The notes: a model not told the origin generated them from the letters alone. A stretch of 24,444 nt of DNA from a virus (IMGVR_UViG_3300012275_000062), one strand, 5' to 3'. Counted from the first letter of the stretch, positions 1 to 23,560 are shown. Translations and numbers: made by a program.

Positions 1-1053
1 TTACGGTGCAATGCCAACCGCTGCCGCCACTTTGTCGCCATTTGGCAGGGTTGCCAATGGGTTAAAGCGCAGCGCTGTTTCAAGGTGATCAGGGGCTAGG
101 TGAGCATAGCGCATGGTCATTTTTATGTCGTGGTGACCAAGGATTTTCTGTAGGGCAAGGATGTTACCGCCTGACATCATAAAGTGTGCTGCAAACGTAT
201 GGCGCAGAACGTGGGTAAGCTGACCGCGCGGCAGCACGATAGAAGTTTTCTCCATCACAGATAAAAACTGGAAGTAGCAGTCAGTAAAGAACTTGAAGCC
301 GTCCAGGGCAATAATTTCCTCATACAACTCTTTGCTGATCGGAATGCTGCGGTTCTTTTTGCCCTTAGTCCTGACAAATGTGATCCGGTATTTTGTAACC
401 TGAGAACGAGTCAGATTTACAGCTTCGCGCCAGCGGGCACCGGTACTCAGACAGATTTTGACAACCAGAGCGAGCAGGGGGCTTTGGCGTTTGCAGTCGC
501 ACAAAAGCTCAGTGATTTGTTCATGAGTCAGCCAGGCCATCTCCTTTTCTGCGATGGTGAATTTGCGCATGTTCTCCAGTGGGTTTGGTGCAGTCCATTC
601 TCCAAGTCGTGCCAACTCGCTAAACACTCCGCTCATATAGCTTTGCTCAAGATTGATAGTTACCGGGCTGGCTCCTTTCTTCCATTTTTCGCTAAAGTAG
701 ATTTCACCTGTCAGGCGTTTATCGCGATAGTGCGCGAACATTTTGGATGTTAAATCAGTGGCGAGGGGATTTCCGAGAGCATCGACCATCAGGATCAGCT
801 TGTCGTAAACATGCTCGCCAGCAGTCAGAGATTTGCCGTGCAGCTTGAACCAGAGTTCAACGACGTCTTTTAGAGTCCGACGGTCTACCGATTCGCCTAG
901 CCAGGGTTTTGCTTCTGTTTCTTCCATAGTGTGACGTTCGAAAGCCAGAGCCTCGCCTTTAGTGGCGAATTGCCTACGCATGCGGCGTCCGTTGCGACCT
1001 GCGGGGTAGCATTCGCATATCCATTTACCTGTGTCGAGTTTTCGTACTGCCAT
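1..1053 (-). CDS. int: Phage tyrosine integrase (P2/186 Int family), 350 aa
   Basis: Full ORF with stop at 1-3. Tyrosine-recombinase active-site residues are visible in the translation (GARWREA ... HVLRHTFA ... MTMRYAHL). Sits at the prophage end next to the immunity region, as in P2/186. Confidence 0.9.
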   Translation of the reverse strand: MAVRKLDTGKWICECYPAGRNGRRMRRQFATKGEALAFERHTMEETEAKPWLGESVDRRTLKDVVELWFKLHGKSLTAGEHVYDKLILMVDALGNPLATDLTSKMFAHYRDKRLTGEIYFSEKWKKGASPVTINLEQSYMSGVFSELARLGEWTAPNPLENMRKFTIAEKEMAWLTHEQITELLCDCKRQSPLLALVVKICLSTGARWREAVNLTRSQVTKYRITFVRTKGKKNRSIPISKELYEEIIALDGFKFFTDCYFQFLSVMEKTSIVLPRGQLTHVLRHTFAAHFMMSGGNILALQKILGHHDIKMTMRYAHLAPDHLETALRFNPLATLPNGDKVAAAVGIAP

Positions 1054-1059
1054 AAAAAA

Positions 1060-1077
1060 GCCCTCATGTCTGAGGGC
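1060..1077 (-). terminator. Intrinsic-terminator-like hairpin between the 418-aa cargo gene and int; also occludes the int SD
   Basis: Perfect 7-bp inverted repeat GCCCTCA / TGAGGGC with a 4-nt loop. On the minus strand it is followed by TTTTTT and then directly by the int ATG (1053). The only SD-like GAGGG upstream of int lies inside the stem. Confidence 0.45.
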
Positions 1078-1137
1078 TAAATTTAACTGTATGTTTGAAC
1101 AGTGGTCAATGTTTGATAACTATTAGATAAAACATTA

Positions 1138-2394
1138 TCATTCATTTTTAACTGCTTCATTTGACCCAGCTTCAAAACTTGATATTTTAAAATTAACAAG
1201 TTCTTTAATAGAATGGCAAATATTCATTAAATCATGTATCTCGAAATTATCACATTTTCTCAGAACATCATCATTAGTTGAGATATTAATTAAATTCATT
1301 ACGTCTTCGGCATTGAACTTTTCGTCATGCAAAACATTTTGGAATGTTGTTTGTATTACTTTGTAATAGCTATTAATATTTTCACTGTTTGAATGTGTAA
1401 GTTGATATAAATGTCTTATTTGTAGATATAATTCAAGCACTCTGTCTTTGAATAATTCTTCATCACTTTTAGTATTGTTAGAAAACTCATTCTCAAACTG
1501 GGATGTTAATTCTTCTTTTTCCTTCGGATCAATAGTCAGAGTCTCGGTTTTTTCAATTGCTTTTTTTAGTATTGGACTCAGTGTATTTGTAAGGCGAATT
1601 ACTTCATCAAGATCTTGTTTAGTAAAATCTCTATTATGAGCAACTTTGCATCTGAGTCGATATAAAATACTCCAATTTTTTATTATAGTGTCAGCATTTG
1701 CTTCGATGTTTGACTCAAAGAATTTTTCCCAGTTTGTTCTGGGAACGATTTTTTTCAATTCTGAGAATATATCAGCATTAATGTCTTTAAATTCAAGCGG
1801 GGTTAATTTTCGGATCAAATCTGTTATTTCAATCTCTCGGTAAGATTTGAATATAAAGTCAGAAAGTTCAATAAAGTCAACTTGATACATTAAATTATGT
1901 TCATTATATTCTGTGTTTTTTTCGGATTTTTTCAATGCTTCTGAAAATTCCTTCGGCACTGAATCTTTTGTCCAAGACAATCCAACGTTATGTATCATGA
2001 ATTTTGTTATTAATTTTCTCATTAAGTTTTCAATTTCATGGATTAATGGATAAGCCTGAATTGAGTAATATTTGCTTATATCATCCCAAATAATTTGAGT
2101 GCTACCTAAATTACTTTCGCTAGATATTTTTTTGAAGAGTCTGGTTAATCTTGAGAAAGTGATTAAATTATCTTCACTAACGTCGTTTAGTGTTAATTTT
2201 ACAGAGATAGTTTCTTTATTGCTTCCATATTCTGATATATCATATTTAAATGACTGTTCTTTGAATTTTAATTCTTTTGGTGAAAATATGACTTCCTCAC
2301 TGGCCTCAATTATTTTTTTATAGGCTGACGGAGAGCGTCCAAAGGAAGTATCTTTATTCACTATTAATAACATCTCGACTATACATTCATCCAT
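1138..2394 (-). CDS. AT-rich cargo protein, 418 aa, with an R-x4-H (HEPN-like) motif; candidate abortive-infection or defense effector
   Basis: Long ORF in a very AT-rich segment with Lys/Asn/Ile/Glu-rich codon usage unlike the backbone. Motif YRLRCKVAHNRDF (residues ~245-257, nt ~1636-1653) fits the HEPN R-x4-6-H signature. SD GAGGAG lies 7 nt upstream of the ATG at 2394. Co-oriented with cI and int. Confidence 0.7.
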   Translation of the reverse strand: MDECIVEMLLIVNKDTSFGRSPSAYKKIIEASEEVIFSPKELKFKEQSFKYDISEYGSNKETISVKLTLNDVSEDNLITFSRLTRLFKKISSESNLGSTQIIWDDISKYYSIQAYPLIHEIENLMRKLITKFMIHNVGLSWTKDSVPKEFSEALKKSEKNTEYNEHNLMYQVDFIELSDFIFKSYREIEITDLIRKLTPLEFKDINADIFSELKKIVPRTNWEKFFESNIEANADTIIKNWSILYRLRCKVAHNRDFTKQDLDEVIRLTNTLSPILKKAIEKTETLTIDPKEKEELTSQFENEFSNNTKSDEELFKDRVLELYLQIRHLYQLTHSNSENINSYYKVIQTTFQNVLHDEKFNAEDVMNLINISTNDDVLRKCDNFEIHDLMNICHSIKELVNFKISSFEAGSNEAVKNE

Positions 2395-2440
2395 TAATTA
2401 GCTCCTCGTTCACGTGATTTATTTTGCTAAAATTTAAGTT

Positions 2441-3007
2441 TTATTTATATTCAAGACATGCCATCACGATTTTTGCGATCATTATTATATCTTCTAACGC
2501 GCATTCGAAAGGAGATATACCACCTTCCACATGAAGGCGCCTGCCAGGCAAGCGTGTAATTGTTCTCATTGATATTTCACCATCAATATTAACAATCCAT
2601 TTTCCATCACGGACATCATCATAATCAATATCACAAATGTATTTGGAACTATCAACAACAACAACCATCGGATTTTTTAGAGCTTTAGGTAGAAAATTTA
2701 CATCAAAAACATAAGACCCTTCAGGACAAAGTTCACCATCATAGAGAATTTTTAGCGGAAGTTCTTTGGTGTTTTCATTTTGTGAACCCTCTTTGATTCC
2801 GTAGCCATTAGTCAGCCAGCTCAATGACGTACCTGTCTCTAAGGCGCACTGAATAACCCATTCCGCAGGGAAGGAGTCGCGCATATAGCGTGTCGCCAAA
2901 GTACTCTTTGAAATCCCTAAATGGTCGCACAAAGCTTGTCTTGTCTTGAAGCCATAGGCTTCAACCATACGCTCTATGGCACCACGGCCGCCTTTTTCCA
3001 AATTCAT
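2441..3007 (-). CDS. cI: Immunity repressor CI (186-type), about 188 aa
   Basis: N-terminal HTH-like segment (GFKTRQALCDHLGISKSTLATRYMRD) plus a C-terminal domain; length and position match 186 CI rather than the 99-aa P2 C. Start taken at ATG 3007 (SD GGAG upstream); the ORF track starts at GTG 3013. Divergent from the apl/cII operon. Confidence 0.75.
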   Translation of the reverse strand: MNLEKGGRGAIERMVEAYGFKTRQALCDHLGISKSTLATRYMRDSFPAEWVIQCALETGTSLSWLTNGYGIKEGSQNENTKELPLKILYDGELCPEGSYVFDVNFLPKALKNPMVVVVDSSKYICDIDYDDVRDGKWIVNIDGEISMRTITRLPGRRLHVEGGISPFECALEDIIMIAKIVMACLEYK

Positions 3008-3031
3008 GGTCACTCCAGGTGAACTTTTATC

Positions 3032-3060
3032 TTGACGATTTCATGATGTGATCGTATGTT
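3032..3060 (+). promoter_or_regulatory. Candidate rightward lytic promoter (pR-like) in the switch region
   Basis: TTGACG (3032-3037), 17-nt spacer, TATGTT (3055-3060), upstream of the apl-like gene. A perfect palindrome TGATTAATCA (3099-3108) lies between this promoter and the apl start and could be an operator. Confidence 0.35.
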
Positions 3061-3132
3061 TATCGTGTTCACAAAATACAAACGATCAGTATTCATCCTG
3101 ATTAATCATTGCTAAACGAGGAATGTTGCATC

Positions 3133-3354
3133 ATGAGACCTAACATTTCAATCACTCTCATCACCCCCCACGTCACTATTGAAAGATATAGTGAACTCAC
3201 TGGGTTATCTATCGACACAATCAACGACATGCTTGCGGATGGGCGATTGCTTCGTCATCGCCTACGCAAGGACAAAAAGCGTGAAAAAGTGATGATTAAC
3301 ATCGCTGCGATGACGGTCGATGCTCTTTCTGATTGCAATGTGACTATCAACTAG
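3133..3354 (+). CDS. apl: Small Apl/Cox-like excisionase and switch regulator, 73 aa
   Basis: First gene of the rightward operon, divergent from cI and immediately upstream of cII, which is the Apl position in 186. ATG 3133 with GAGGAA SD; the ORF track begins at an upstream TTG (3109). Assigned by position and size only. Confidence 0.5.
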   Translation: MRPNISITLITPHVTIERYSELTGLSIDTINDMLADGRLLRHRLRKDKKREKVMINIAAMTVDALSDCNVTIN

Positions 3355-3386
3355 TTCCATTCTGAGACTTCACGGAGCAACTGACT

Positions 3387-3896
3387 ATGTTTGACTATCG
3401 CATATCAAAACATCCGCATTTCCATGATGCCTGTCGGGCTTTTGCTTTACGGCACAACATGGCGAAGCTGGCAGAACTTGCAGGCATGAACGTCCAAACC
3501 CTGCGCAATAAGCTCAACCCGGAGCAACCGCACCAGCTCACGGCGCCAGACATATGGCTGCTAACCGATCTCACCGAAGACTCCACATTAGTTGATGGGT
3601 TTCTGGCGCAAATTCATTGCTTGCCATGTGTTCCGGTAAACGAAGTTGCAAAAGAGAAATTGCCGCATTACGTCATGAGCGCTACCGCAGAAATAGGTCG
3701 TGTTGCTGCAGGTGCCGTCTCTGGTGAAGTGAAAACTACCGCAGGCCGCCGCGATGTAATTAGCAGCATTAATTCAGTTACGCGTTTGATGGCACTGACT
3801 GCAGTTTCATTACAGGCGCGTTTGCAGGCTAACCCAGCGATGGCAAGCGCAGTAGATACCGTGACGGGCCTCGGTGCTTCGTTCGGTCTGATCTGA
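3387..3896 (+). CDS. cII: CII-like establishment-of-lysogeny activator (186 CII family), 169 aa
   Basis: Translation MFDYRISKHPHFHDACRAFALRHNMAKLAELAGMNVQTLRNKLNPEQ... matches my recollection of 186 CII in sequence and length. SD ACGGAG upstream of ATG 3387. Confidence 0.7.
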   Translation: MFDYRISKHPHFHDACRAFALRHNMAKLAELAGMNVQTLRNKLNPEQPHQLTAPDIWLLTDLTEDSTLVDGFLAQIHCLPCVPVNEVAKEKLPHYVMSATAEIGRVAAGAVSGEVKTTAGRRDVISSINSVTRLMALTAVSLQARLQANPAMASAVDTVTGLGASFGLI

Positions 3897-3903
3897 GGTG
3901 GTT

Positions 3904-4237
3904 ATGCTGACGAAAGAACCTTCATTTGCATCACTATTGGTGAGGCAAAGCCCGGCAATGCACTGCGGTCATGGCTGGATTATGGGGAAGGATGGCAAGC
4001 GCTGGCACCTGTGCCGTACTCAGAATGCGCTTCTGGATGAATTGTCTACAACCAAAAAGGGGAAATCATGGCGCAAGCTACAGAAGGTGTGTTTTACCAG
4101 TTCTTCCATAAGGGCGAAAAGTATTCAATTCATGAGGACGAGTTTGCAAGTTGTTATCCGTCTCTTTCGGGTGATGGTAGTTACTATTTTACGTTGCGAG
4201 ATGGGACATTCTTTCGGGGGGAACGGGTTCAGGAAGT
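3904..4237 (+). CDS. Hypothetical early protein (186 fil/dhr position); 3' end undetermined because the frame runs into the N-gap
   Basis: ATG 3904 just after the cII stop with SD GAGG. No stop codon before the gap at 4238. The downstream part of this frame looks non-protein-like, so the real gene is probably short. Confidence 0.3.
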
Positions 4238-4352
4238 NNNNNNNNNNNNNNNNNNNNNNNNNNNNNNNNNNNGAAAAGCACATCACCTCTTGAACAGTAT
4301 CGCCAACAAACTTATCGGTAACGCTCTATTAGCTCCTGAAGTTTGTAGGTGA
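4068..4352 (+). CDS. Hypothetical early protein, interrupted by the assembly gap 4238-4272
   Basis: ATG 4068 preceded by a strong SD (AAAAAGGGGAAATC). Protein-like N-terminus MAQATEGVFYQFFHKGEKYSIHEDEF... Length is unreliable because of the N-run. Confidence 0.45.
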   Translation: MAQATEGVFYQFFHKGEKYSIHEDEFASCYPSLSGDGSYYFTLRDGTFFRGERVQEXXXXXXXXXXXXXKAHHLLNSIANKLIGNALLAPEVCR

Positions 4353-8753: not shown

Positions 8754-9269
8754 ATGCCTGGGTTAGAAAATGCACAGCAAAATCAAGTTGATGAAATCGT
8801 TCCAGCAATGCAAATCGCATTGGTCGAAGAAGATATAGAACAACCCATCGCTGCCGAATACCTATACAGCCAGCATATAAGTGCGCTTGTGCCACAATGC
8901 CCTCCTGCCGAAGCGACAGAGTGCGATAGAGAATGCTGGCGTTTTACACTGAATCCTATAAGTCACAACTGCTTTTGGCCTCCAAAAAGAAGATCACCGC
9001 AGCGAATTGCTTCCGACGATGCGGAGGAGTGTTCTATGTGGGCGTTGTCTATGTATGAATCAGAGGCCCAGGCTACAAGAGCCTATACCATGTTAGCGAA
9101 GAAGATGAAAAATATCAGAAAAGCTATTGGTGATCACCTTGCTGTGGGTTCAGTAACCTGTAGTGATGGTAAATGTATGCCTGCTAGCAGAACCGGTCAC
9201 TTTGATTTTCATCCTTATGTGGATGCGGATTTCGTTAACGGGTTCCAAGTAATACGAGCATTACCATGA
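8754..9269 (+). CDS. Cargo gene 1 of a two-gene operon: 171-aa Cys-rich protein of unknown family
   Basis: Strong SD AGGAAAGGAG before ATG 8754. Seven Cys residues. Translation is protein-like but carries no motif I recognise. Stop overlaps the start of the next gene (ATGA at 9266-9269). Confidence 0.75.
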   Translation: MPGLENAQQNQVDEIVPAMQIALVEEDIEQPIAAEYLYSQHISALVPQCPPAEATECDRECWRFTLNPISHNCFWPPKRRSPQRIASDDAEECSMWALSMYESEAQATRAYTMLAKKMKNIRKAIGDHLAVGSVTCSDGKCMPASRTGHFDFHPYVDADFVNGFQVIRALP

Positions 9270-10357
9270 TAAAATTAGATGCTAGAAGAATAAATGCGTC
9301 AACTGTCGGAGATTATTCTTGGTACTCTGACCTCGTATATTTCGATGGTCCCCTAATTTGCTTGTTTAGAGGAAGCGGATATAAAGATGCTCTTTATGTC
9401 TGGCTTGATAATTCGGAGCGTGCCAATCGTTGGTGCTTGATTCCAGTATCAAGATCTACTTTGGACTCTTATCTTAACCAAAGAATGAGTTTAAGGGAGA
9501 TTATACAATCGAGCGAATATACATATATCTGCGATCATTTTGCGAAAACCGGAAGGAAGCACTACAACATTTTGCACGTTGATAGTTTTCCTGAGGAGTA
9601 TATGCCTGATGAAGATTCATATTTGTATGAAGAAATATGTACTGATGATGCATTGCTGTTGAAGCAGGAGCGCACCTCCAGTTATATGCTTGGATTAGAT
9701 AATCAGTTGTTTATAAATGATTTATCTGTAATACCAAAAATTTTCGAACAGCTCTATTCTTTCCATTACGGATTGGCTCATTTAGGACGGTTGTCGATTA
9801 GAAATACCATGTTGCGTCTGATGGGGAATTGGACGGGTGGAATATCAGCAGTAAATATATTTTCAGGGTTGAAAAATGTTATTCCTGTTTTGCATCGACC
9901 AGAGATTAGCTCTCTCCAATACAATTCACCGGGGCATATTGAGTTAAATTTACTTCCTGATTTGGCTCAAAGTGTTCAAGATGCATCTATTCGTGTGAAA
10001 AGTGAGCTAGTTTATGACCGTCTGGAGAAAATGTATAAAAATACATATGCATACTTCAAGGATAATGGGCTGTCAGGCTTTGATGAAGACGGCGGCATTG
10101 AAATTAGAAATATCGATAGTGATACCACCGGAAACCTACGTAAACGCGTAAGAATATTTTTTAGATGTTTGGGGTGGTCAAGTTATCAAGCTCAGTTTGA
10201 TCTGATCGGTGCCCATCCTCTACAACAATTACGTGCTGTGATGGCCTACTACAGGCGGCTCAAAATCTTGCGTGAATACATTGTCTCCGAGAAGCTTTTT
10301 GTTGGTCAGTCTCGGGTGTTACAGCAGCCACAAATTGCTCTGCCTCCTGAGGATTAG
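9266..10357 (+). CDS. Cargo gene 2 of a two-gene operon: 363-aa protein of unknown family
   Basis: Translationally coupled to gene 1. AT-richer than the backbone. No Walker A, HUH, HEPN or other signature found by eye. Confidence 0.8.
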   Translation: MIKLDARRINASTVGDYSWYSDLVYFDGPLICLFRGSGYKDALYVWLDNSERANRWCLIPVSRSTLDSYLNQRMSLREIIQSSEYTYICDHFAKTGRKHYNILHVDSFPEEYMPDEDSYLYEEICTDDALLLKQERTSSYMLGLDNQLFINDLSVIPKIFEQLYSFHYGLAHLGRLSIRNTMLRLMGNWTGGISAVNIFSGLKNVIPVLHRPEISSLQYNSPGHIELNLLPDLAQSVQDASIRVKSELVYDRLEKMYKNTYAYFKDNGLSGFDEDGGIEIRNIDSDTTGNLRKRVRIFFRCLGWSSYQAQFDLIGAHPLQQLRAVMAYYRRLKILREYIVSEKLFVGQSRVLQQPQIALPPED

Positions 10358-10413
10358 ATTCTGCGTTATGCTGCATGAATCCGCATGATCGTTTGAGGAT
10401 CGTTCTAGATGAG

Positions 10414-10437
10414 GCCCGTCAGCAATGGCGGGCTTTT
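10414..10437 (+). terminator. Intrinsic-terminator-like hairpin downstream of the two-gene operon
   Basis: GC-rich stem GCCCG (10414-10418) / CGGGC (10429-10433) followed by TTTT (10434-10437). It may instead be part of the cos-region structure. Confidence 0.3.
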
Positions 10438-10482
10438 GCTAATGTCATGCTGGCGCATGAAAACCACTACATAAAGCGGGCA

Positions 10483-10501
10483 GGCGTGGCGGGGATACGA
10501 G
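10483..10501. other. Putative cos (cohesive-end) site of the P2/186 family
   Basis: GGCGTGGCGGGGATACGAG: the first 13 nt match the 19-nt cohesive end I recall for 186 (GGCGTGGCGGGGAAAGCAT; P2 is GGCGAGGCGGGGAAAGCAC). It lies where cos is expected, between the right-end accessory region and Q. Confidence 0.35.
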
Positions 10502-10635
10502 CGCGCTCTGATATGAAAATCTGAACAAATAATTACAAAATGGTATCTTTTTGTTGCTATCATCATTTTTGATGGTAACTTAACCTTTTCAGTTTCTATA
10601 TTATAAAATTCTATCCAGAAGAAGGAATTTGTTTC

Positions 10636-12417
10636 ATGGCTGAACTATTACCGCAAACAACTTCTATACAAACTATTTATTCATGGTTTACTGAAGGTAA
10701 GATATTTGTTAATAGACGTTATCAACGAAAATTAGTTTGGACTGCAATAGAGAAACAAAAATTAATTGAATCCATTCAAAAAAAATATCCAATTCCTGCA
10801 GTTCTTCTCGCGGAAAGGGAAAATGATCCTGGCACATATGAAATAATTGATGGCCTACAAAGATTACATGCAATAATGTCTTTCATCGAAACAGGATATG
10901 AATCACTTGATGGAAAACGTTTTAATCTGGACGCTTTTCCCACAGCGAAAAATCGAGCGGATGAAGGTAAGTTTGTTGCAGTGAAAGCTGATAATCTTTT
11001 AAGTCAGCGTGAGGTTACTCAGTTATTGGATTATTCTCTTGCAATGTCCATTATGCGTAATGCGACTGAGAACGAAATAAATGATGTTTTTGATAGAATT
11101 AATACATACGGGCATAGACTTAGTGATCAAGAAAGGCGCCAGGCTGGTATACAAAATAAATTTTCAAATATGGTTAGGGATATTGCCTGTTCTATCAGGG
11201 GGGATGTATCTGACGACATATTGCTTTTAGAGCAAATGCCGTCTATTAGCATTGATTTGCCACTAACTAAACATGGTTACCAAATTCAGTCGGAAGAAGT
11301 ATTTTGGGTAAAACATGGGATCTTACGTTCAACAGACCTTCGTGACAGTATGGATGAGCAATGCATTGCAGATATAGCAGCTTGTATTGTTGGAGGTAAG
11401 TTAATAGATCGTTCCAAAGATGCGCTTGATCAGATTTATAATAATGAAGATGAAGAGTATAGTCGTATTAGCTCTGCTATTAATGTTTATGGTGAAGGAA
11501 AATTTGCAGAAGAGTTTAAATTCTGCATCCAGGAAATAACAAAAGTATGTAATAGTGACGGTGAAATTAAACTCAGGGATTTAATCTTTACTAAACGTAC
11601 TACAAATGCTTTCCCAGCCATATTTGCTGTGTTATTTATTGCTTTTCATGAATTACTCATTAAAGAAAATAAGAAGATTAATAATTATAAAGGTGTAAAA
11701 GACAATCTTAATAATATAGTCACTCGACTAGATACTAAAAGATCTGCTACTGGTGGGGAAGAGAGAAGAAAGAATATTAATTCTATCATTGGCTTGATTA
11801 AAGATAACTTTATTGATAGCGCCGATAGCAGTCATATCTATAATTCTCACAATACGGTGGATATTGAGGATATTTTACGAAGATCTGAAATAGAGCTTGC
11901 AAATTATGAACTGAAACAGGGTTTGTTGATGTTAGGCGGAGAGCGAACTATTGATGATGGCATTCATGAGAAAATATTCTCCACAATTTGTGCTATTGCT
12001 AACATCGGTAAAGGTAACAAGAACGGTGTAGTTGGTAAGTTATTGCTTGGTGTAACAGATAAACCAAGTGATACAAGTAGAGTAAAAGAGCTTGATGATA
12101 TAGATGCACATGTAGTTGGTGAGAGAAGTGTTGTTGGTGTTAAAAGAGAAGCTATTAAACTCGGCATATCAATGGAAGAATATTATAGACGTTTTTGCGA
12201 TGAGTTGAAAAAATCTGCTTTGAGTGAGCCTCTTAAATCACAAGTGGTGAGTTTGATTGACTATAATGACTTTTATGGTTATGGAGTTATAGTTATTACA
12301 ATTCCACTTCTAGCATCTTATTCTAGTTATGATGGGGATATTTATTATCGTGCTGGCGATAATACCGTAAAAGCAACAGTTATCGAAGCAGCAGATATTG
12401 CAACACGTTTTAAATGA
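10636..12417 (+). CDS. Cargo protein, 593 aa: N-terminal DUF262 (ParB/Srx-like) domain fused to a C-terminal Schlafen/AlbA_2-like domain; candidate single-gene anti-phage system
   Basis: DUF262 signatures NRRYQRKLVW (residues ~27-35, nt ~10714-10740) and IIDGLQRLHAI (~70-80, nt ~10843-10875), plus the downstream FDRINTYGHRLS block. C-terminal ELANYELKQ ... IFSTICAIANIGKGNKNGVVGKLLLGVTD (~418-475) resembles the AlbA_2 core. Very AT-rich. Own SD (GAAGGAA) and AT-rich upstream region. Confidence 0.85.
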   Translation: MAELLPQTTSIQTIYSWFTEGKIFVNRRYQRKLVWTAIEKQKLIESIQKKYPIPAVLLAERENDPGTYEIIDGLQRLHAIMSFIETGYESLDGKRFNLDAFPTAKNRADEGKFVAVKADNLLSQREVTQLLDYSLAMSIMRNATENEINDVFDRINTYGHRLSDQERRQAGIQNKFSNMVRDIACSIRGDVSDDILLLEQMPSISIDLPLTKHGYQIQSEEVFWVKHGILRSTDLRDSMDEQCIADIAACIVGGKLIDRSKDALDQIYNNEDEEYSRISSAINVYGEGKFAEEFKFCIQEITKVCNSDGEIKLRDLIFTKRTTNAFPAIFAVLFIAFHELLIKENKKINNYKGVKDNLNNIVTRLDTKRSATGGEERRKNINSIIGLIKDNFIDSADSSHIYNSHNTVDIEDILRRSEIELANYELKQGLLMLGGERTIDDGIHEKIFSTICAIANIGKGNKNGVVGKLLLGVTDKPSDTSRVKELDDIDAHVVGERSVVGVKREAIKLGISMEEYYRRFCDELKKSALSEPLKSQVVSLIDYNDFYGYGVIVITIPLLASYSSYDGDIYYRAGDNTVKATVIEAADIATRFK

Positions 12418-21138: not shown

Positions 21139-21717
21139 ATGAACGCACAATTAACCGAAATCATGCGCCTTATCACCAACCTGATCCGCACAGGTGTAGT
21201 CACCGAAGTGGACAGGGCAAACTGGCTGTGTCGGGTGAAAACTGGCGACCTCGAAACCAACTGGATTAACTGGCTGACACTGCGCGCGGGCAAATCGCGC
21301 ACCTGGTGGAAACCGTCTGTGGGTGAGCAGGTTGTGCTGTTCAGCCTTGGCGGCAATCTGGAAACCGCGTTTGCCCTGCCTGCGGTCTACTCAAACCAGT
21401 TTCCGCCACCTTCAGGTTCTGAGGACGGCAACGTGACGGAATACCCGGACGGCGGCTGGTTTGAATACGAACCCGCCACCGGGCGCTGGTATGTCAGGGG
21501 CATCAAATCAATGGTCATTGAGGCCGCTGACAATATCACCCTGAAAACCAGTGAGTTTGTGCTGGAGGCTGACCGCACGCGTATTAACAGCGAAGTGGTG
21601 ATCAATGGTGGCGTTACCCAGGGCGGCGGAGCGATGAGCTCTAACGGGATTGTGGTTGATGCGCATCAGCATACTGGCGTCCTGAAAGGCGGCGATACAA
21701 CCGGAGGCCCGGTATGA
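21139..21717 (+). CDS. V: Baseplate assembly/spike protein V (P2 gpV family)
   Basis: Matches recalled gpV (IRTG ... RAGKSRTWWKPSVGEQV ... LGG.LETAF.LP.VYS). An in-frame ATG at 21124 is an alternative start. Confidence 0.85.
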   Translation: MNAQLTEIMRLITNLIRTGVVTEVDRANWLCRVKTGDLETNWINWLTLRAGKSRTWWKPSVGEQVVLFSLGGNLETAFALPAVYSNQFPPPSGSEDGNVTEYPDGGWFEYEPATGRWYVRGIKSMVIEAADNITLKTSEFVLEADRTRINSEVVINGGVTQGGGAMSSNGIVVDAHQHTGVLKGGDTTGGPV

Positions 21718-22073
21718 CGCTTTATAGCGGGATGAACAATACCAGCGGCAAAGTCATTACTGATATTGATCATCTGCGCCAGTCGGTGCGGGACATTCTG
21801 CTGACACCGCAGGGTAGCCGCATTGCCCGCCGGGAATATGGTTCCCTCCTGTCGGTTTTAATAGATCAGCCACAAAATCCGGCATTACGCCTGCAGGTCA
21901 TGTCGGCAGTGTATGTGGCGCTGAGTCGCTGGGAGCCACGGCTGACGCTGGATTCCATCACCATCAACAGCAACTTTGACGGTTCTATGGTGGTGGAGCT
22001 GACCGGGCGGCGGAATAACGGTGTGCCTGTGTCCCTTTCCGTATCAACAGGAGCAGAGAATGGCAGTGATTGA
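21714..22073 (+). CDS. W: Baseplate wedge protein W (gp25-like, P2 gpW family)
   Basis: Size (119 aa) and position; coupled to V (overlapping stop/start). Confidence 0.8.
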   Translation: MTLYSGMNNTSGKVITDIDHLRQSVRDILLTPQGSRIARREYGSLLSVLIDQPQNPALRLQVMSAVYVALSRWEPRLTLDSITINSNFDGSMVVELTGRRNNGVPVSLSVSTGAENGSD

Positions 22074-22968
22074 CCTTTCGCAGTTGCCTGCACCGCAGAT
22101 TGTGGATGTGCCGGACTTTGAGACGCTGCTTGCCGAACGCAAGGCCCAATTTGTTGCGCTTCATCCGAAAGATGAGCGGGAAGCCGTGATCCGCACGCTG
22201 GAACTGGAATCTGAACCCGTCACTAAATTGTTGCAGGAGAACGCTTACCGTGAGTTGCTTCTGCGCCAGCGCATTAACGAAGCCGCGCAGGCGGTGATGG
22301 TGGCTTACGCGATGGGCGGCGATCTTGACCAGCTCGCTGCCAACTACAACGTGACACGCCTGACGGTGACGCCTGCTGATAATGATGCTGTGCCGCCCGT
22401 TGCAGCTGTGATGGAAAGCGATGAAGCGTTACGCCTGCGTGTGCCTGCAGCCTTTGAAGGGCTTTCTGTTGCGGGGCCAACTGCAGCTTATGAATTTCAT
22501 GCCCGAAGCGCCGACGGTCGGGTAGCGGATGCCAGTGCAACCAGCCCGGCACCTGCAGAGGTGGTGCTGACTGTCCTTAGCCGCGAAGGCGATGGAACTG
22601 CAGAAAAAGACCTGCTGGACGTGGTGGAAAAAGCTCTGAACAGTGAGAACGTCCGCCCGGTGGCTGACCGTCTTACGGTTCGCAGCGCAGAAATCATCCC
22701 GTATCGCGTGGAAGCCACCATTTTTCTCTATCCGGGACCGGAAGCAGAGCCGGTAATGGCAGCGGCAAAAGCCAGTCTGCAGAAGTACATTGCCAGCCAG
22801 ACGAGGCTTGGTCGGGATATTCGCCGTAGCGCCATCTTTGCTGCTCTGCATGTTGAGGGTGTTCAACGTGTGGAACTGGCTTCTCCGCTGGCGGATGTGG
22901 TCCTGAACAAAACACAGGCGGCATCATGTACGCAGTGGAGCGTAACCAACGGAGGAACGGATGAATAG
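22060..22968 (+). CDS. J: Baseplate assembly protein J (P2 gpJ family), 302 aa
   Basis: Start chosen at ATG 22060 (MAVIDLSQLP), which gives the P2 gpJ length; the ORF track starts at 22021. Confidence 0.85.
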   Translation: MAVIDLSQLPAPQIVDVPDFETLLAERKAQFVALHPKDEREAVIRTLELESEPVTKLLQENAYRELLLRQRINEAAQAVMVAYAMGGDLDQLAANYNVTRLTVTPADNDAVPPVAAVMESDEALRLRVPAAFEGLSVAGPTAAYEFHARSADGRVADASATSPAPAEVVLTVLSREGDGTAEKDLLDVVEKALNSENVRPVADRLTVRSAEIIPYRVEATIFLYPGPEAEPVMAAAKASLQKYIASQTRLGRDIRRSAIFAALHVEGVQRVELASPLADVVLNKTQAASCTQWSVTNGGTDE

Positions 22969-23560
22969 TCTGCTGCCACCGGGTTCACTGGAGCGCCGAC
23001 TGGCGCAAACCTGTAGCGGGATTTCTGATCTGCAGGTGCCGCTGCGTGACTTGTGGAATCCGGCTACCTGTCCGGTCAGCTTCCTGCCTTATCTCGCCTG
23101 GGCGTTCTCTGTGGATCGCTGGGACGAGGGCTGGACAGAAAGCGTCAAACGCCAGGTAGTGAAGGATGCTTTTTATATTCATCAGCATAAAGGAACTACC
23201 AGTGCCGTGCGGCGGGTGGTGGAACCGTTCGGATTCCTGATCCGCATTATTGAGTGGTGGCAGACCGGAGAAACACCGGGCACGTTTCGCCTGGATATCG
23301 GCGTGCAGGACCAGGGCATCACTGAAGATACCTATCTGGAACTTGAGCGGCTGATAAGCGATGCCAAACCATGTAGCCGTCACATGATCGGCATGTCCAT
23401 CAATCTGCAGACCAGCGGTCCGCATTGGGTGGGGGCCGCCAGCTATCTTGGCGAAGAAATCACGATCTATCCGTATATCAACGAAACAATTATTTCTGGC
23501 GGCACCGCGCATGAAGGCGGGGCGGTCCATGTTATTGACACAATGAGAGTGAATCCATGA
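22961..23560 (+). CDS. I: Baseplate protein I (P2 gpI family)
   Basis: Position between J and H; coupled starts and stops. Confidence 0.8.
   Translation: MNSLLPPGSLERRLAQTCSGISDLQVPLRDLWNPATCPVSFLPYLAWAFSVDRWDEGWTESVKRQVVKDAFYIHQHKGTTSAVRRVVEPFGFLIRIIEWWQTGETPGTFRLDIGVQDQGITEDTYLELERLISDAKPCSRHMIGMSINLQTSGPHWVGAASYLGEEITIYPYINETIISGGTAHEGGAVHVIDTMRVNP

Follow-up and report, generated by a model that had tools for sequence, protein, structure and literature searches.

A candidate HEPN ribonuclease gene carried as cargo between the cI and int genes of a 186-family prophage

Introduction

Typical features of the HEPN superfamily are an all-alpha core of four helices in up-and-down order, an Rx4-6H motif, and metal-independent endoribonuclease activity of a composite site built from two motifs. 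Swt1-like proteins and the Abi2/AbiD/AbiF proteins have been grouped into one "Abi2/Swt1" clade of HEPN domains, for whose bacterial versions both catalytic activity and an association with defence are predicted (PMC3710099). Several recurrent insertion sites for defence genes have been described in the P2/P4 group of phages and satellites: the interval between psu and int of P4 is a published defence hotspot, a cI–int hotspot was reported in K139-like Vibrio phages (PMC9122126), and the integrase–primase hotspot of P2-like phages accounted for 8% of systems (PMC13586616). Here, we analyse a 418-amino-acid (aa) open reading frame (ORF) that is located between the repressor gene cI and the integrase gene int in IMGVR_UViG_3300012275_000062, a 24,444-nucleotide (nt) stretch of viral DNA that is referred to as the window throughout. 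The region at 1060–2440 had been highlighted in an earlier note, written from the sequence alone, as carrying an AT-rich gene for a HEPN-motif protein inserted into the lysogenic operon, with abortive infection (Abi) as its presumed role.

In common with the P2-like phage and P4 satellite hotspots, the locus consists of low-GC variable cargo lying between conserved core genes; the gene family found here is not among the systems described or tested in the two hotspot papers (PMC9122126, PMC13586616).

Results

Assignment of the ORF product to the HEPN superfamily

The gene lies entirely within the region highlighted previously and was called as follows:

1138..2394, minus strand: cargo ORF, candidate HEPN RNase, 418 aa plus stop codon (ORF call).

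Its product contains the motif YRLRCKVAHNRDF, which bears R248 and H253 and had been read as an R-x4-H HEPN active site, with the caution that such a match can arise by chance. That caution was justified, as at least one Rx4H occurred in 26% of shuffles of the window protein; the motif by itself is not significant and derives its significance from the conservation of R, H, and the following N. The initial homolog search returned 134 relatives from Enterobacteria, Pseudomonas, Shewanella, Bacillus, Paenibacillus, Clostridium, and cyanobacteria. In alignment A1, which includes 37 homologs down to 24% identity, R248, H253, and N254 proved to be invariant in all 37 sequences, and the extended form RxxΦAHN was present in 118 of 120 homologs. 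The protein thus carries the conserved Rx4-6H motif of the HEPN superfamily.

The profile search that the note had called for pointed in the same direction. The window protein matched Pfam HEPN_Swt1 (PF18731) at aa 123–267 with an E-value of 5.5e-4 and 20.6 bits, a score under the Pfam gathering cut-off, and the same profile was matched by 35 of the 37 family members when they were scanned singly (E ≤ 0.01, best E 1.6e-7). One member with 47% identity to the window protein (P0036) carries the NCBI name "Swt1 family HEPN domain-containing protein". The window protein is therefore a clade-level relative of HEPN_Swt1 and no curated member of it. The conserved residues and the family-wide profile matches together support the predicted HEPN assignment. 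Of the affiliations suggested earlier, the superfamily and the Abi2/Swt1 clade stood, while at the family level neither Abi_2/AbiD/AbiF nor Apea-like HEPN was matched in Pfam; with Swt1 and Abi2 being sister groups, the named families were a close guess rather than an exact one.

The family turned out to be large. The exhaustive profile search collected 1714 clusters (50% identity) at E ≤ 1e-3 and 620 at E ≤ 1e-30, and almost all of the best 150 cluster representatives shown were matched over nearly the full length.

Three-domain architecture with a degenerate second HEPN domain

The AlphaFold2 (AF2) model of the protein (predicted local distance difference test score, pLDDT, 83.6) consists of three parts, an alpha/beta one and two helical ones (aa 105–285 and aa 290–417), an arrangement that goes beyond what had been claimed from the sequence, as does the catalytically dead second HEPN domain described below. 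The domains and motifs are encoded as follows:

2083..2394, minus strand: N-terminal alpha/beta domain, aa 1–104 (AF2 pLDDT mostly 80–94; no family match).
1540..2082, minus strand: HEPN1, Swt1-type, predicted catalytic HEPN domain, aa 105–285, with an inserted, partly disordered region at about aa 146–232 (Pfam HEPN_Swt1).
1996..2031, minus strand: first-helix motif E122-N-L-M-R-K-L-I-T-K-F-M133 (alignment A1).
1633..1653, minus strand: catalytic Rx4H(N) motif R248-C-K-V-A-H253-N254 (invariant in 37/37 homologs).
1141..1539, minus strand: C-terminal domain, degenerate HEPN2 (predicted HEPN fold without Rx4H), aa 286–418 ("NISTND" at the position of the relatives' RNxxVH).

The N-terminal domain is built in the AF2 model of the strands E3–12, E47–55, E62–70, and E97–104 and two helices. 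It accompanies the HEPN domains family-wide, as matches begin at about profile position 1–5 in nearly all of the best 150 cluster representatives shown, and its ratio of nonsynonymous to synonymous substitution rates (dN/dS) is 0.09–0.12. Foldseek returned only weak ferredoxin-like matches for this domain (E > 0.1). We propose that it may act as a sensor or regulatory domain.

In HEPN1, the catalytic motif is not the only constrained element, as E122, N123, R126, K127, L128, I129, F132, and M133 of the first helix are also invariant in alignment A1. When HEPN1 was compared with the family's HepT-like HEPN2 by hhalign, the two aligned with E 7.3e-5 and their catalytic motifs fell in register.

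The C-terminal domain occurs in two kinds. Most of the more distant homologs (about 65 of 80) have a second motif, RNxxVH, approximately 120 residues past the first one, and 12 of the 37 aligned members match Pfam HepT-like at this domain. In the clade of the window protein, an in-register second motif was found in none of 40 members; the single match detected was out of register and attributable to chance. Profile–profile alignment nevertheless showed the two kinds of C-terminal domain to be collinear (74% probability, E 2.9e-5), with "NISTND" lying opposite RNxxVH. All three domains, including the motif-less C-terminal one, are under purifying selection. From these alignments, we concluded that the ancestral design was probably a single-chain tandem HEPN protein, of which the prophage clade appears to retain a catalytically dead but functional HEPN2.

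The ORF occupies a variable slot between cI and int

The ORF is flanked by two phage genes in the same orientation, and int, the ORF, and cI, all on the minus strand, are the first three genes of the window:

1..1053, minus strand: int, tyrosine integrase, downstream of the ORF (Pfam Int_N 2.2e-31, Phage_integrase 6.1e-21).
2441..3013, minus strand: cI, 186-type CI repressor, upstream of the ORF (Pfam Phage_CI_repr 1e-30, Phage_CI_C 8.7e-25).

Beyond cI, divergent apl-like and cII genes are followed by the gpA replicase gene. The products of cII, int, and cI share 72%, 55%, and 35% identity, respectively, with those of phage 186; the window phage thus belongs to the 186 family and has an immunity unlike that of 186. 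Runs of N (X in the translations) at about 4230–4270 and about 7400, which represent masked or unresolved bases, break ORFs in the early region and gpA.

That the gene is an insertion, as previously asserted, was confirmed by several lines of evidence. In the reference phage 186, cI (22433..23011) and int (21423..22433) have 1 nt in common and are annotated as a single lysogenic operon; consequently, the approximately 1.3-kb ORF segment is an insertion relative to 186. Its composition agrees with the AT bias noted before, the GC content of the ORF being 0.29, whereas int and the window as a whole both have 0.50 and cI has 0.41. The backbone homology to a relative with another cargo ends at about 1114–1142 on the int side and restarts at about 2501, within the 3′-end of cI. 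The last approximately 20 codons of cI (2441–2500) have no homology to the sister prophage that carries a KAP cargo, which places the cI-side recombination junction of the slot inside the repressor gene.

The content of the slot varies among related prophages. Relatives of the prophage backbone were present in 1122 of 5426 complete E. coli genomes, none of which contained the ORF (megablast of the ORF), and tblastn of its protein against 50,697 phage records gave no match. The usual filling between cI and int in the relatives is one small ORF of about 63 aa. In E. coli H14 (L016:2636-4164), a KAP-family P-loop NTPase gene and a 61-aa ORF lie between cI and int; this NTPase may be compared with the single-gene KAP system "Reve" (PMC13586616). 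In E. coli MB06022 (L018:841-3634), the cI–int interval holds only a 63-aa ORF, and genes for a Panacea-domain protein and a hypothetical protein are found between int and the attachment side.

The gene itself is maintained in this position. The identical protein (P0001) was found on 174 contigs, with the order cI–ORF–int at every site inspected, and the same order is kept by the orthologs from Citrobacter (90% identity), Enterobacter asburiae (85%), and E. wuhouensis (53%), which occupy the same slot. The dN/dS values lie at 0.12–0.14, and the value of 0.14 against the Citrobacter and E. asburiae orthologs indicates a functional gene. In a Cronobacter remnant (L012:5833-7360), a 51-aa C-terminal fragment of cI, the HEPN gene, the int leader, and the first int codons (about 40 nt) are left, that is, the HEPN gene has outlasted its phage. 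Variable and compositionally foreign content between conserved core genes of similar prophages is what characterizes hotspot cargo, and these observations support that the ORF was acquired horizontally and fills the cI–int slot of a 186-family prophage as cargo.

Relatives are found in defence-type contexts

The genomic surroundings of the relatives were sampled in several phyla. In Enterobacter hormaechei, the psu–int interval of a P4-like satellite, the hotspot mentioned above, contains the homolog (P0049, a two-motif relative) and no other cargo. In Nostoc (L019:1758-13230), it is part of a BREX operon, where it lies between the genes of BrxC and a PglX-type methyltransferase, followed by those of an AAA_15 ATPase and PglZ. 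The homolog of Clostridium sporogenes adjoins HEPN_LA2681 and PIN_12 genes, that of B. thuringiensis is situated amid RES, RT/HD-CE, and RNase_T genes with a 609-aa ORF upstream, and that of P. antarctica is located near a pyocin S and immunity pair with a 377-aa ORF downstream.

A further homolog, 33% identical and carrying both Rx4H motifs, was found in a Pf-type filamentous prophage of P. aeruginosa (L008:5289-7218). It lies directly 3′ of a co-oriented gene for a 91-aa repressor-type regulator (phrog_147, E 1e-23), which is divergent from a gene weakly matching a Cox-like excisionase PHROG. The Pf prophage thus has the same after-repressor placement as the window in an unrelated phage family. 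At another locus (L010), a homolog is flanked by two Pf-like elements.

The neighbours vary in every sampled context, and no partner gene recurs. In agreement with a single-gene system, no antitoxin-like ORF adjoined the window gene, and the Rfam and tandem-repeat searches detected neither an Rfam RNA nor a repeat array.

A second low-GC cargo block of the window prophage (8754–12417, GC 0.33–0.45) occupies the gpA–portal interval, which is the principal P2 hotspot in the literature. It includes PD-T4-10, of which component A is encoded at 8754..9269 (PADLOC 9.8e-76) and component B at 9266..10357 (8.2e-172), and an ORF at 10636..12417 for a 593-aa GmrSD_N/DUF262-type protein (Pfam 1.6e-22; PADLOC NsnA 8e-31, PD-T4-2_A 2e-18).

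Expression signals and the int leader

The sequences bordering the ORF on its two sides contain the following elements:

2402..2407, minus strand: Shine–Dalgarno sequence GAGGAG, 7 nt before the ATG of the ORF (read from the sequence).
2395..2440, minus strand: cI-to-ORF spacer of 46 nt without a terminator-like site (sequence inspection).
1054..1113, minus strand: conserved int leader, phage backbone, at the int-side edge of the slot (alignment A2).

Co-transcription of the ORF with cI from pL is plausible, given that the arrangement is syntenic with the lysogenic operon of 186 and that the two genes are separated by only 46 nt, in which no terminator-like site lies.

In the int leader, a promoter-like sequence (TTGACC-18-TAAATT) is followed by an 8-bp GC-rich hairpin (1078..1059) and a T-run directly before the int ATG. 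The hairpin arms are AGCCCTCA-gaca-TGAGGGCT, and the 3′ arm contains the only GAGGG ribosome-binding sequence of int. The leader (about 60 nt) is conserved across cargo variants in alignment A2, with a compensatory change of C-G to T-A in the KAP-bearing H14 prophage (L016) and a G.U pair in the Cronobacter remnant (L012). As a terminator-like hairpin with GAGGG in its 3′ arm, it could stop the upstream lysogenic transcript and occlude the translation of int, so that terminator and int translation block may be combined in one structure.

Discussion

Proposed function

Beyond the conservation of the HEPN protein and its place in a cargo slot, we infer the following. The ORF probably encodes a single-polypeptide HEPN endoribonuclease that serves the lysogen as an anti-phage effector, by abortive infection or superinfection exclusion. 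The defence role, which had been assumed earlier from the expression of genes co-transcribed with the repressor, is now suggested by genomic context: the P4 hotspot, the BREX operon, the Pf prophage, and the defence-type islands in which relatives reside, and the other defence cargo of the window prophage. The gene would share the lysogenic promoter with cI but use a strong ribosome-binding site of its own for translation, so that the protein would be present before infection. It may be held inactive, with the N-terminal domain and/or the dead HEPN2 acting as sensor or intramolecular regulator. Upon an infection cue, two copies of HEPN1, each contributing R248 and H253, might build a composite active site, and the active enzyme would cut cellular and/or phage RNA and thereby halt phage production. 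As the HEPN2 motif is lost and HEPN sites are composite, the active form should be a homo-oligomer in which two HEPN1 domains pair.

Several observations weigh against this proposal. With respect to the enzyme itself, tandem-HEPN proteins do not usually have just one Rx4H in each chain, which makes activity depend on the putative oligomerization; in Las1, both HEPN motifs are required (10.1101/760058). The Pfam match remained at 20.6 bits as compared with the gathering cut-off of 27.5, the NCBIfam and PHROGs scans of the ORF protein returned nothing, and sequence searches of the Protein Data Bank (PDB), whether started from the single protein or from the family profile, gave no significant match, the best being HepT (6m6w, E 0.35) at the C-terminal domain. 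The PADLOC match was partial and weak, to the candidate component PDC-M34B (aa 113–180, profile positions 60–133 of 192, E 4.4e-7). With respect to expression, the promoter scan yielded 14 promoter-like sites against 9.9 ± 3.5 expected, which is chance level, and identified no promoter, while the cI–apl switch region could not be aligned to that of 186 to place pL. Finally, neither an experimental study of any member nor any other paper on the family was found in the literature.

HEPN domains are also the classic toxins of HepT/MntA modules (PMC3710099), and the C-terminal domain of distant relatives matches Pfam HepT-like, as described above. The gene could accordingly belong to a toxin or addiction module that stabilizes the prophage or modulates its induction, with a prophage-encoded factor restraining the HEPN toxin and with harm to the cells upon loss or induction. 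Its position within the lysogeny operon would fit such a role, as would its retention in the Cronobacter remnant beside nothing more of the repressor than a cI fragment. However, the gene has survived in this remnant even though the prophage is no longer intact, which speaks against the need for a prophage-encoded antidote. Moreover, neither MNT nor any other small partner adjoins the gene in the 186-type, P4, and BREX contexts, the Rfam and tandem-repeat searches gave no RNA antitoxin signal, and the contexts are those typical of defence cargo; we regard an addiction module as unlikely. A partner could instead be encoded elsewhere in the prophage or the host, making the protein one component of a multi-gene system. 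The PADLOC match to component B of the two-gene candidate PDC-M34 (E 4.4e-7) and the conserved unknown neighbours of some relatives, such as the ORFs of 609 aa in B. thuringiensis and 377 aa in P. antarctica, speak for this, but the match is limited to the conserved first HEPN helix (aa 113–180), the neighbours differ in each sampled context, and the gene is the sole cargo in both the P4 hotspot and the cI–int slot, which renders this explanation quite improbable.

The location between cI and int, beside a conserved structured leader that would sequester the int ribosome-binding site, would also suit a factor serving the phage itself, for example, an RNA-processing or regulatory protein acting on the cI–int transcript or on host RNAs, or a counter-defence protein; eukaryotic Swt1 and Las1 indeed function in RNA surveillance and RNA processing, respectively (PMC3710099). 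Most relatives of the phage lack the gene, though, with no occurrence in 5426 E. coli genomes compared with the backbone in 1122, members of the family are also found outside phages, for example, in the BREX operon and on chromosomal islands, and the int leader is conserved regardless of the cargo; a service to the phage therefore seems very improbable to us. The least probable explanation is a non-catalytic pseudo-enzyme that binds RNA or a ligand and acts as a regulator like MtlR or the HEPN domain of eukaryotic Swt1. Inactive HEPN domains are known (PMC3710099) and one of the two HEPN domains here has no motif, but HEPN1 has kept R248, H253, and N254 without exception across phyla, and its catalytic region is strongly constrained.

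The anti-phage endoribonuclease proposed above can be extended to a wider and rather doubtful scheme, in which the family would be a widespread class of single-chain tandem-HEPN defence RNases, combining an Abi2/Swt1-type HEPN and a HepT-type HEPN behind an N-terminal sensor, as a non-CRISPR counterpart to the two-HEPN design of Cas13. The dead but selected HEPN2 of the enterobacterial prophage clade would then cap the active HEPN as a built-in antitoxin, and the enzyme would fire through trigger-induced homo-oligomerization.

Comparison with known systems

The Swt1-like/Abi2 clade is the best and only consistent profile match of the family, and the Rx4H followed by N is common to both. Compared with that clade, the window protein additionally has a large insertion in the domain, the N-terminal alpha/beta domain, and a second, HepT-type HEPN.

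Individual families and systems of related kind were rejected. Abi_2 was matched neither by the window protein (E ≤ 1) nor by the 37 members (E ≤ 0.01), and there was no PADLOC Abi match, which removes Abi_2/AbiD/AbiF; the AbiF-type non-coding RNA (RF03085) was not seen in the Rfam scan of 800–3400 (E ≤ 1), which gave only three sub-threshold matches at the int-leader hairpin/terminator region (1052–1146). ApeA was discarded as neither HEPN_Apea nor PADLOC ApeA was matched, and the UniRef label "Apea-like HEPN" of one homolog (P0011) was not reproduced. The HepT/MntA type VII toxin–antitoxin system does not correspond either: the predicted HepT-like fold of the window clade has no Rx4H and is fused behind another HEPN domain, unlike the stand-alone HepT, and neither neighbour is an MNT gene. 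PDC-M34 was dismissed since its component B is matched only partially and the slot has no second cargo gene.

Among the single-protein HEPN effectors, ApeA, DARNA (PD-T7-3), PD-T4-2, and HepS were not matched by the window protein in PADLOC or Pfam. Identity with DARNA/PD-T7-3 is ruled out by the architecture and the lack of a PADLOC match; DARNA has an N-terminal HEPN and a Pds5-like domain, in an order unlike that of the window protein (10.64898/2026.02.22.705581). The solved chain of HepS has 218 residues as compared with the 418 aa of the window protein, and the "Putative HEPN" from P2 tested by Rousset (pFR103) is unrelated in sequence. At E ≤ 1, PADLOC matches were confined to two PDC-M34B models. 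Foldseek of the full model against the PDB gave no match at E ≤ 1e-3 (best AbiA, E 0.02). Literature searches on PDC-M34, Swt1-type HEPN defence, and tandem-HEPN defence returned nothing relevant; the Aernus proteins (PMC13586616) lay outside the comparison.

Both the kind of locus and the kind of effector, a stand-alone HEPN defence RNase, are thus already known, while the family matches no known defence system by profile. That a HEPN gene at a prophage hotspot is a candidate for defence would come as no surprise to a specialist; what makes this one a good experimental lead is its tandem-HEPN design, in which a dead HEPN2 is kept under selection, together with the recurrent placement after a repressor gene. 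If it is an active defence RNase, a sizeable family that spans Proteobacteria, Firmicutes, and Cyanobacteria and is not recognized by current defence databases would be added to the anti-phage repertoire. The cI–int junction of 186-type coliphages is documented here as a cargo slot positioned for possible expression from the lysogenic promoter, with a parallel in the Pf prophage.

A comparable design outside the clade is that of Cas13 and Cas13an, which have two HEPN domains and two Rx4H motifs per chain, as do most members of the present family. When the HEPN domains of Cas13an were used as queries in structural searches, the similar nucleases retrieved from outside CRISPR systems were Swt1, DZIP3, and AbiD/F (PMC12165695). 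In contrast to Cas13, the window protein is much smaller, its HEPN domains are of two types, its clade has one intact motif, and neither a CRISPR array nor a guide RNA was evident in the Rfam and tandem-repeat searches. The family offers a natural comparison of two-motif and one-motif tandem-HEPN proteins, which bears on the silencing of HEPN RNases, the evolution of composite sites, and the proposal that Cas13 arose through the fusion of defence HEPN genes.

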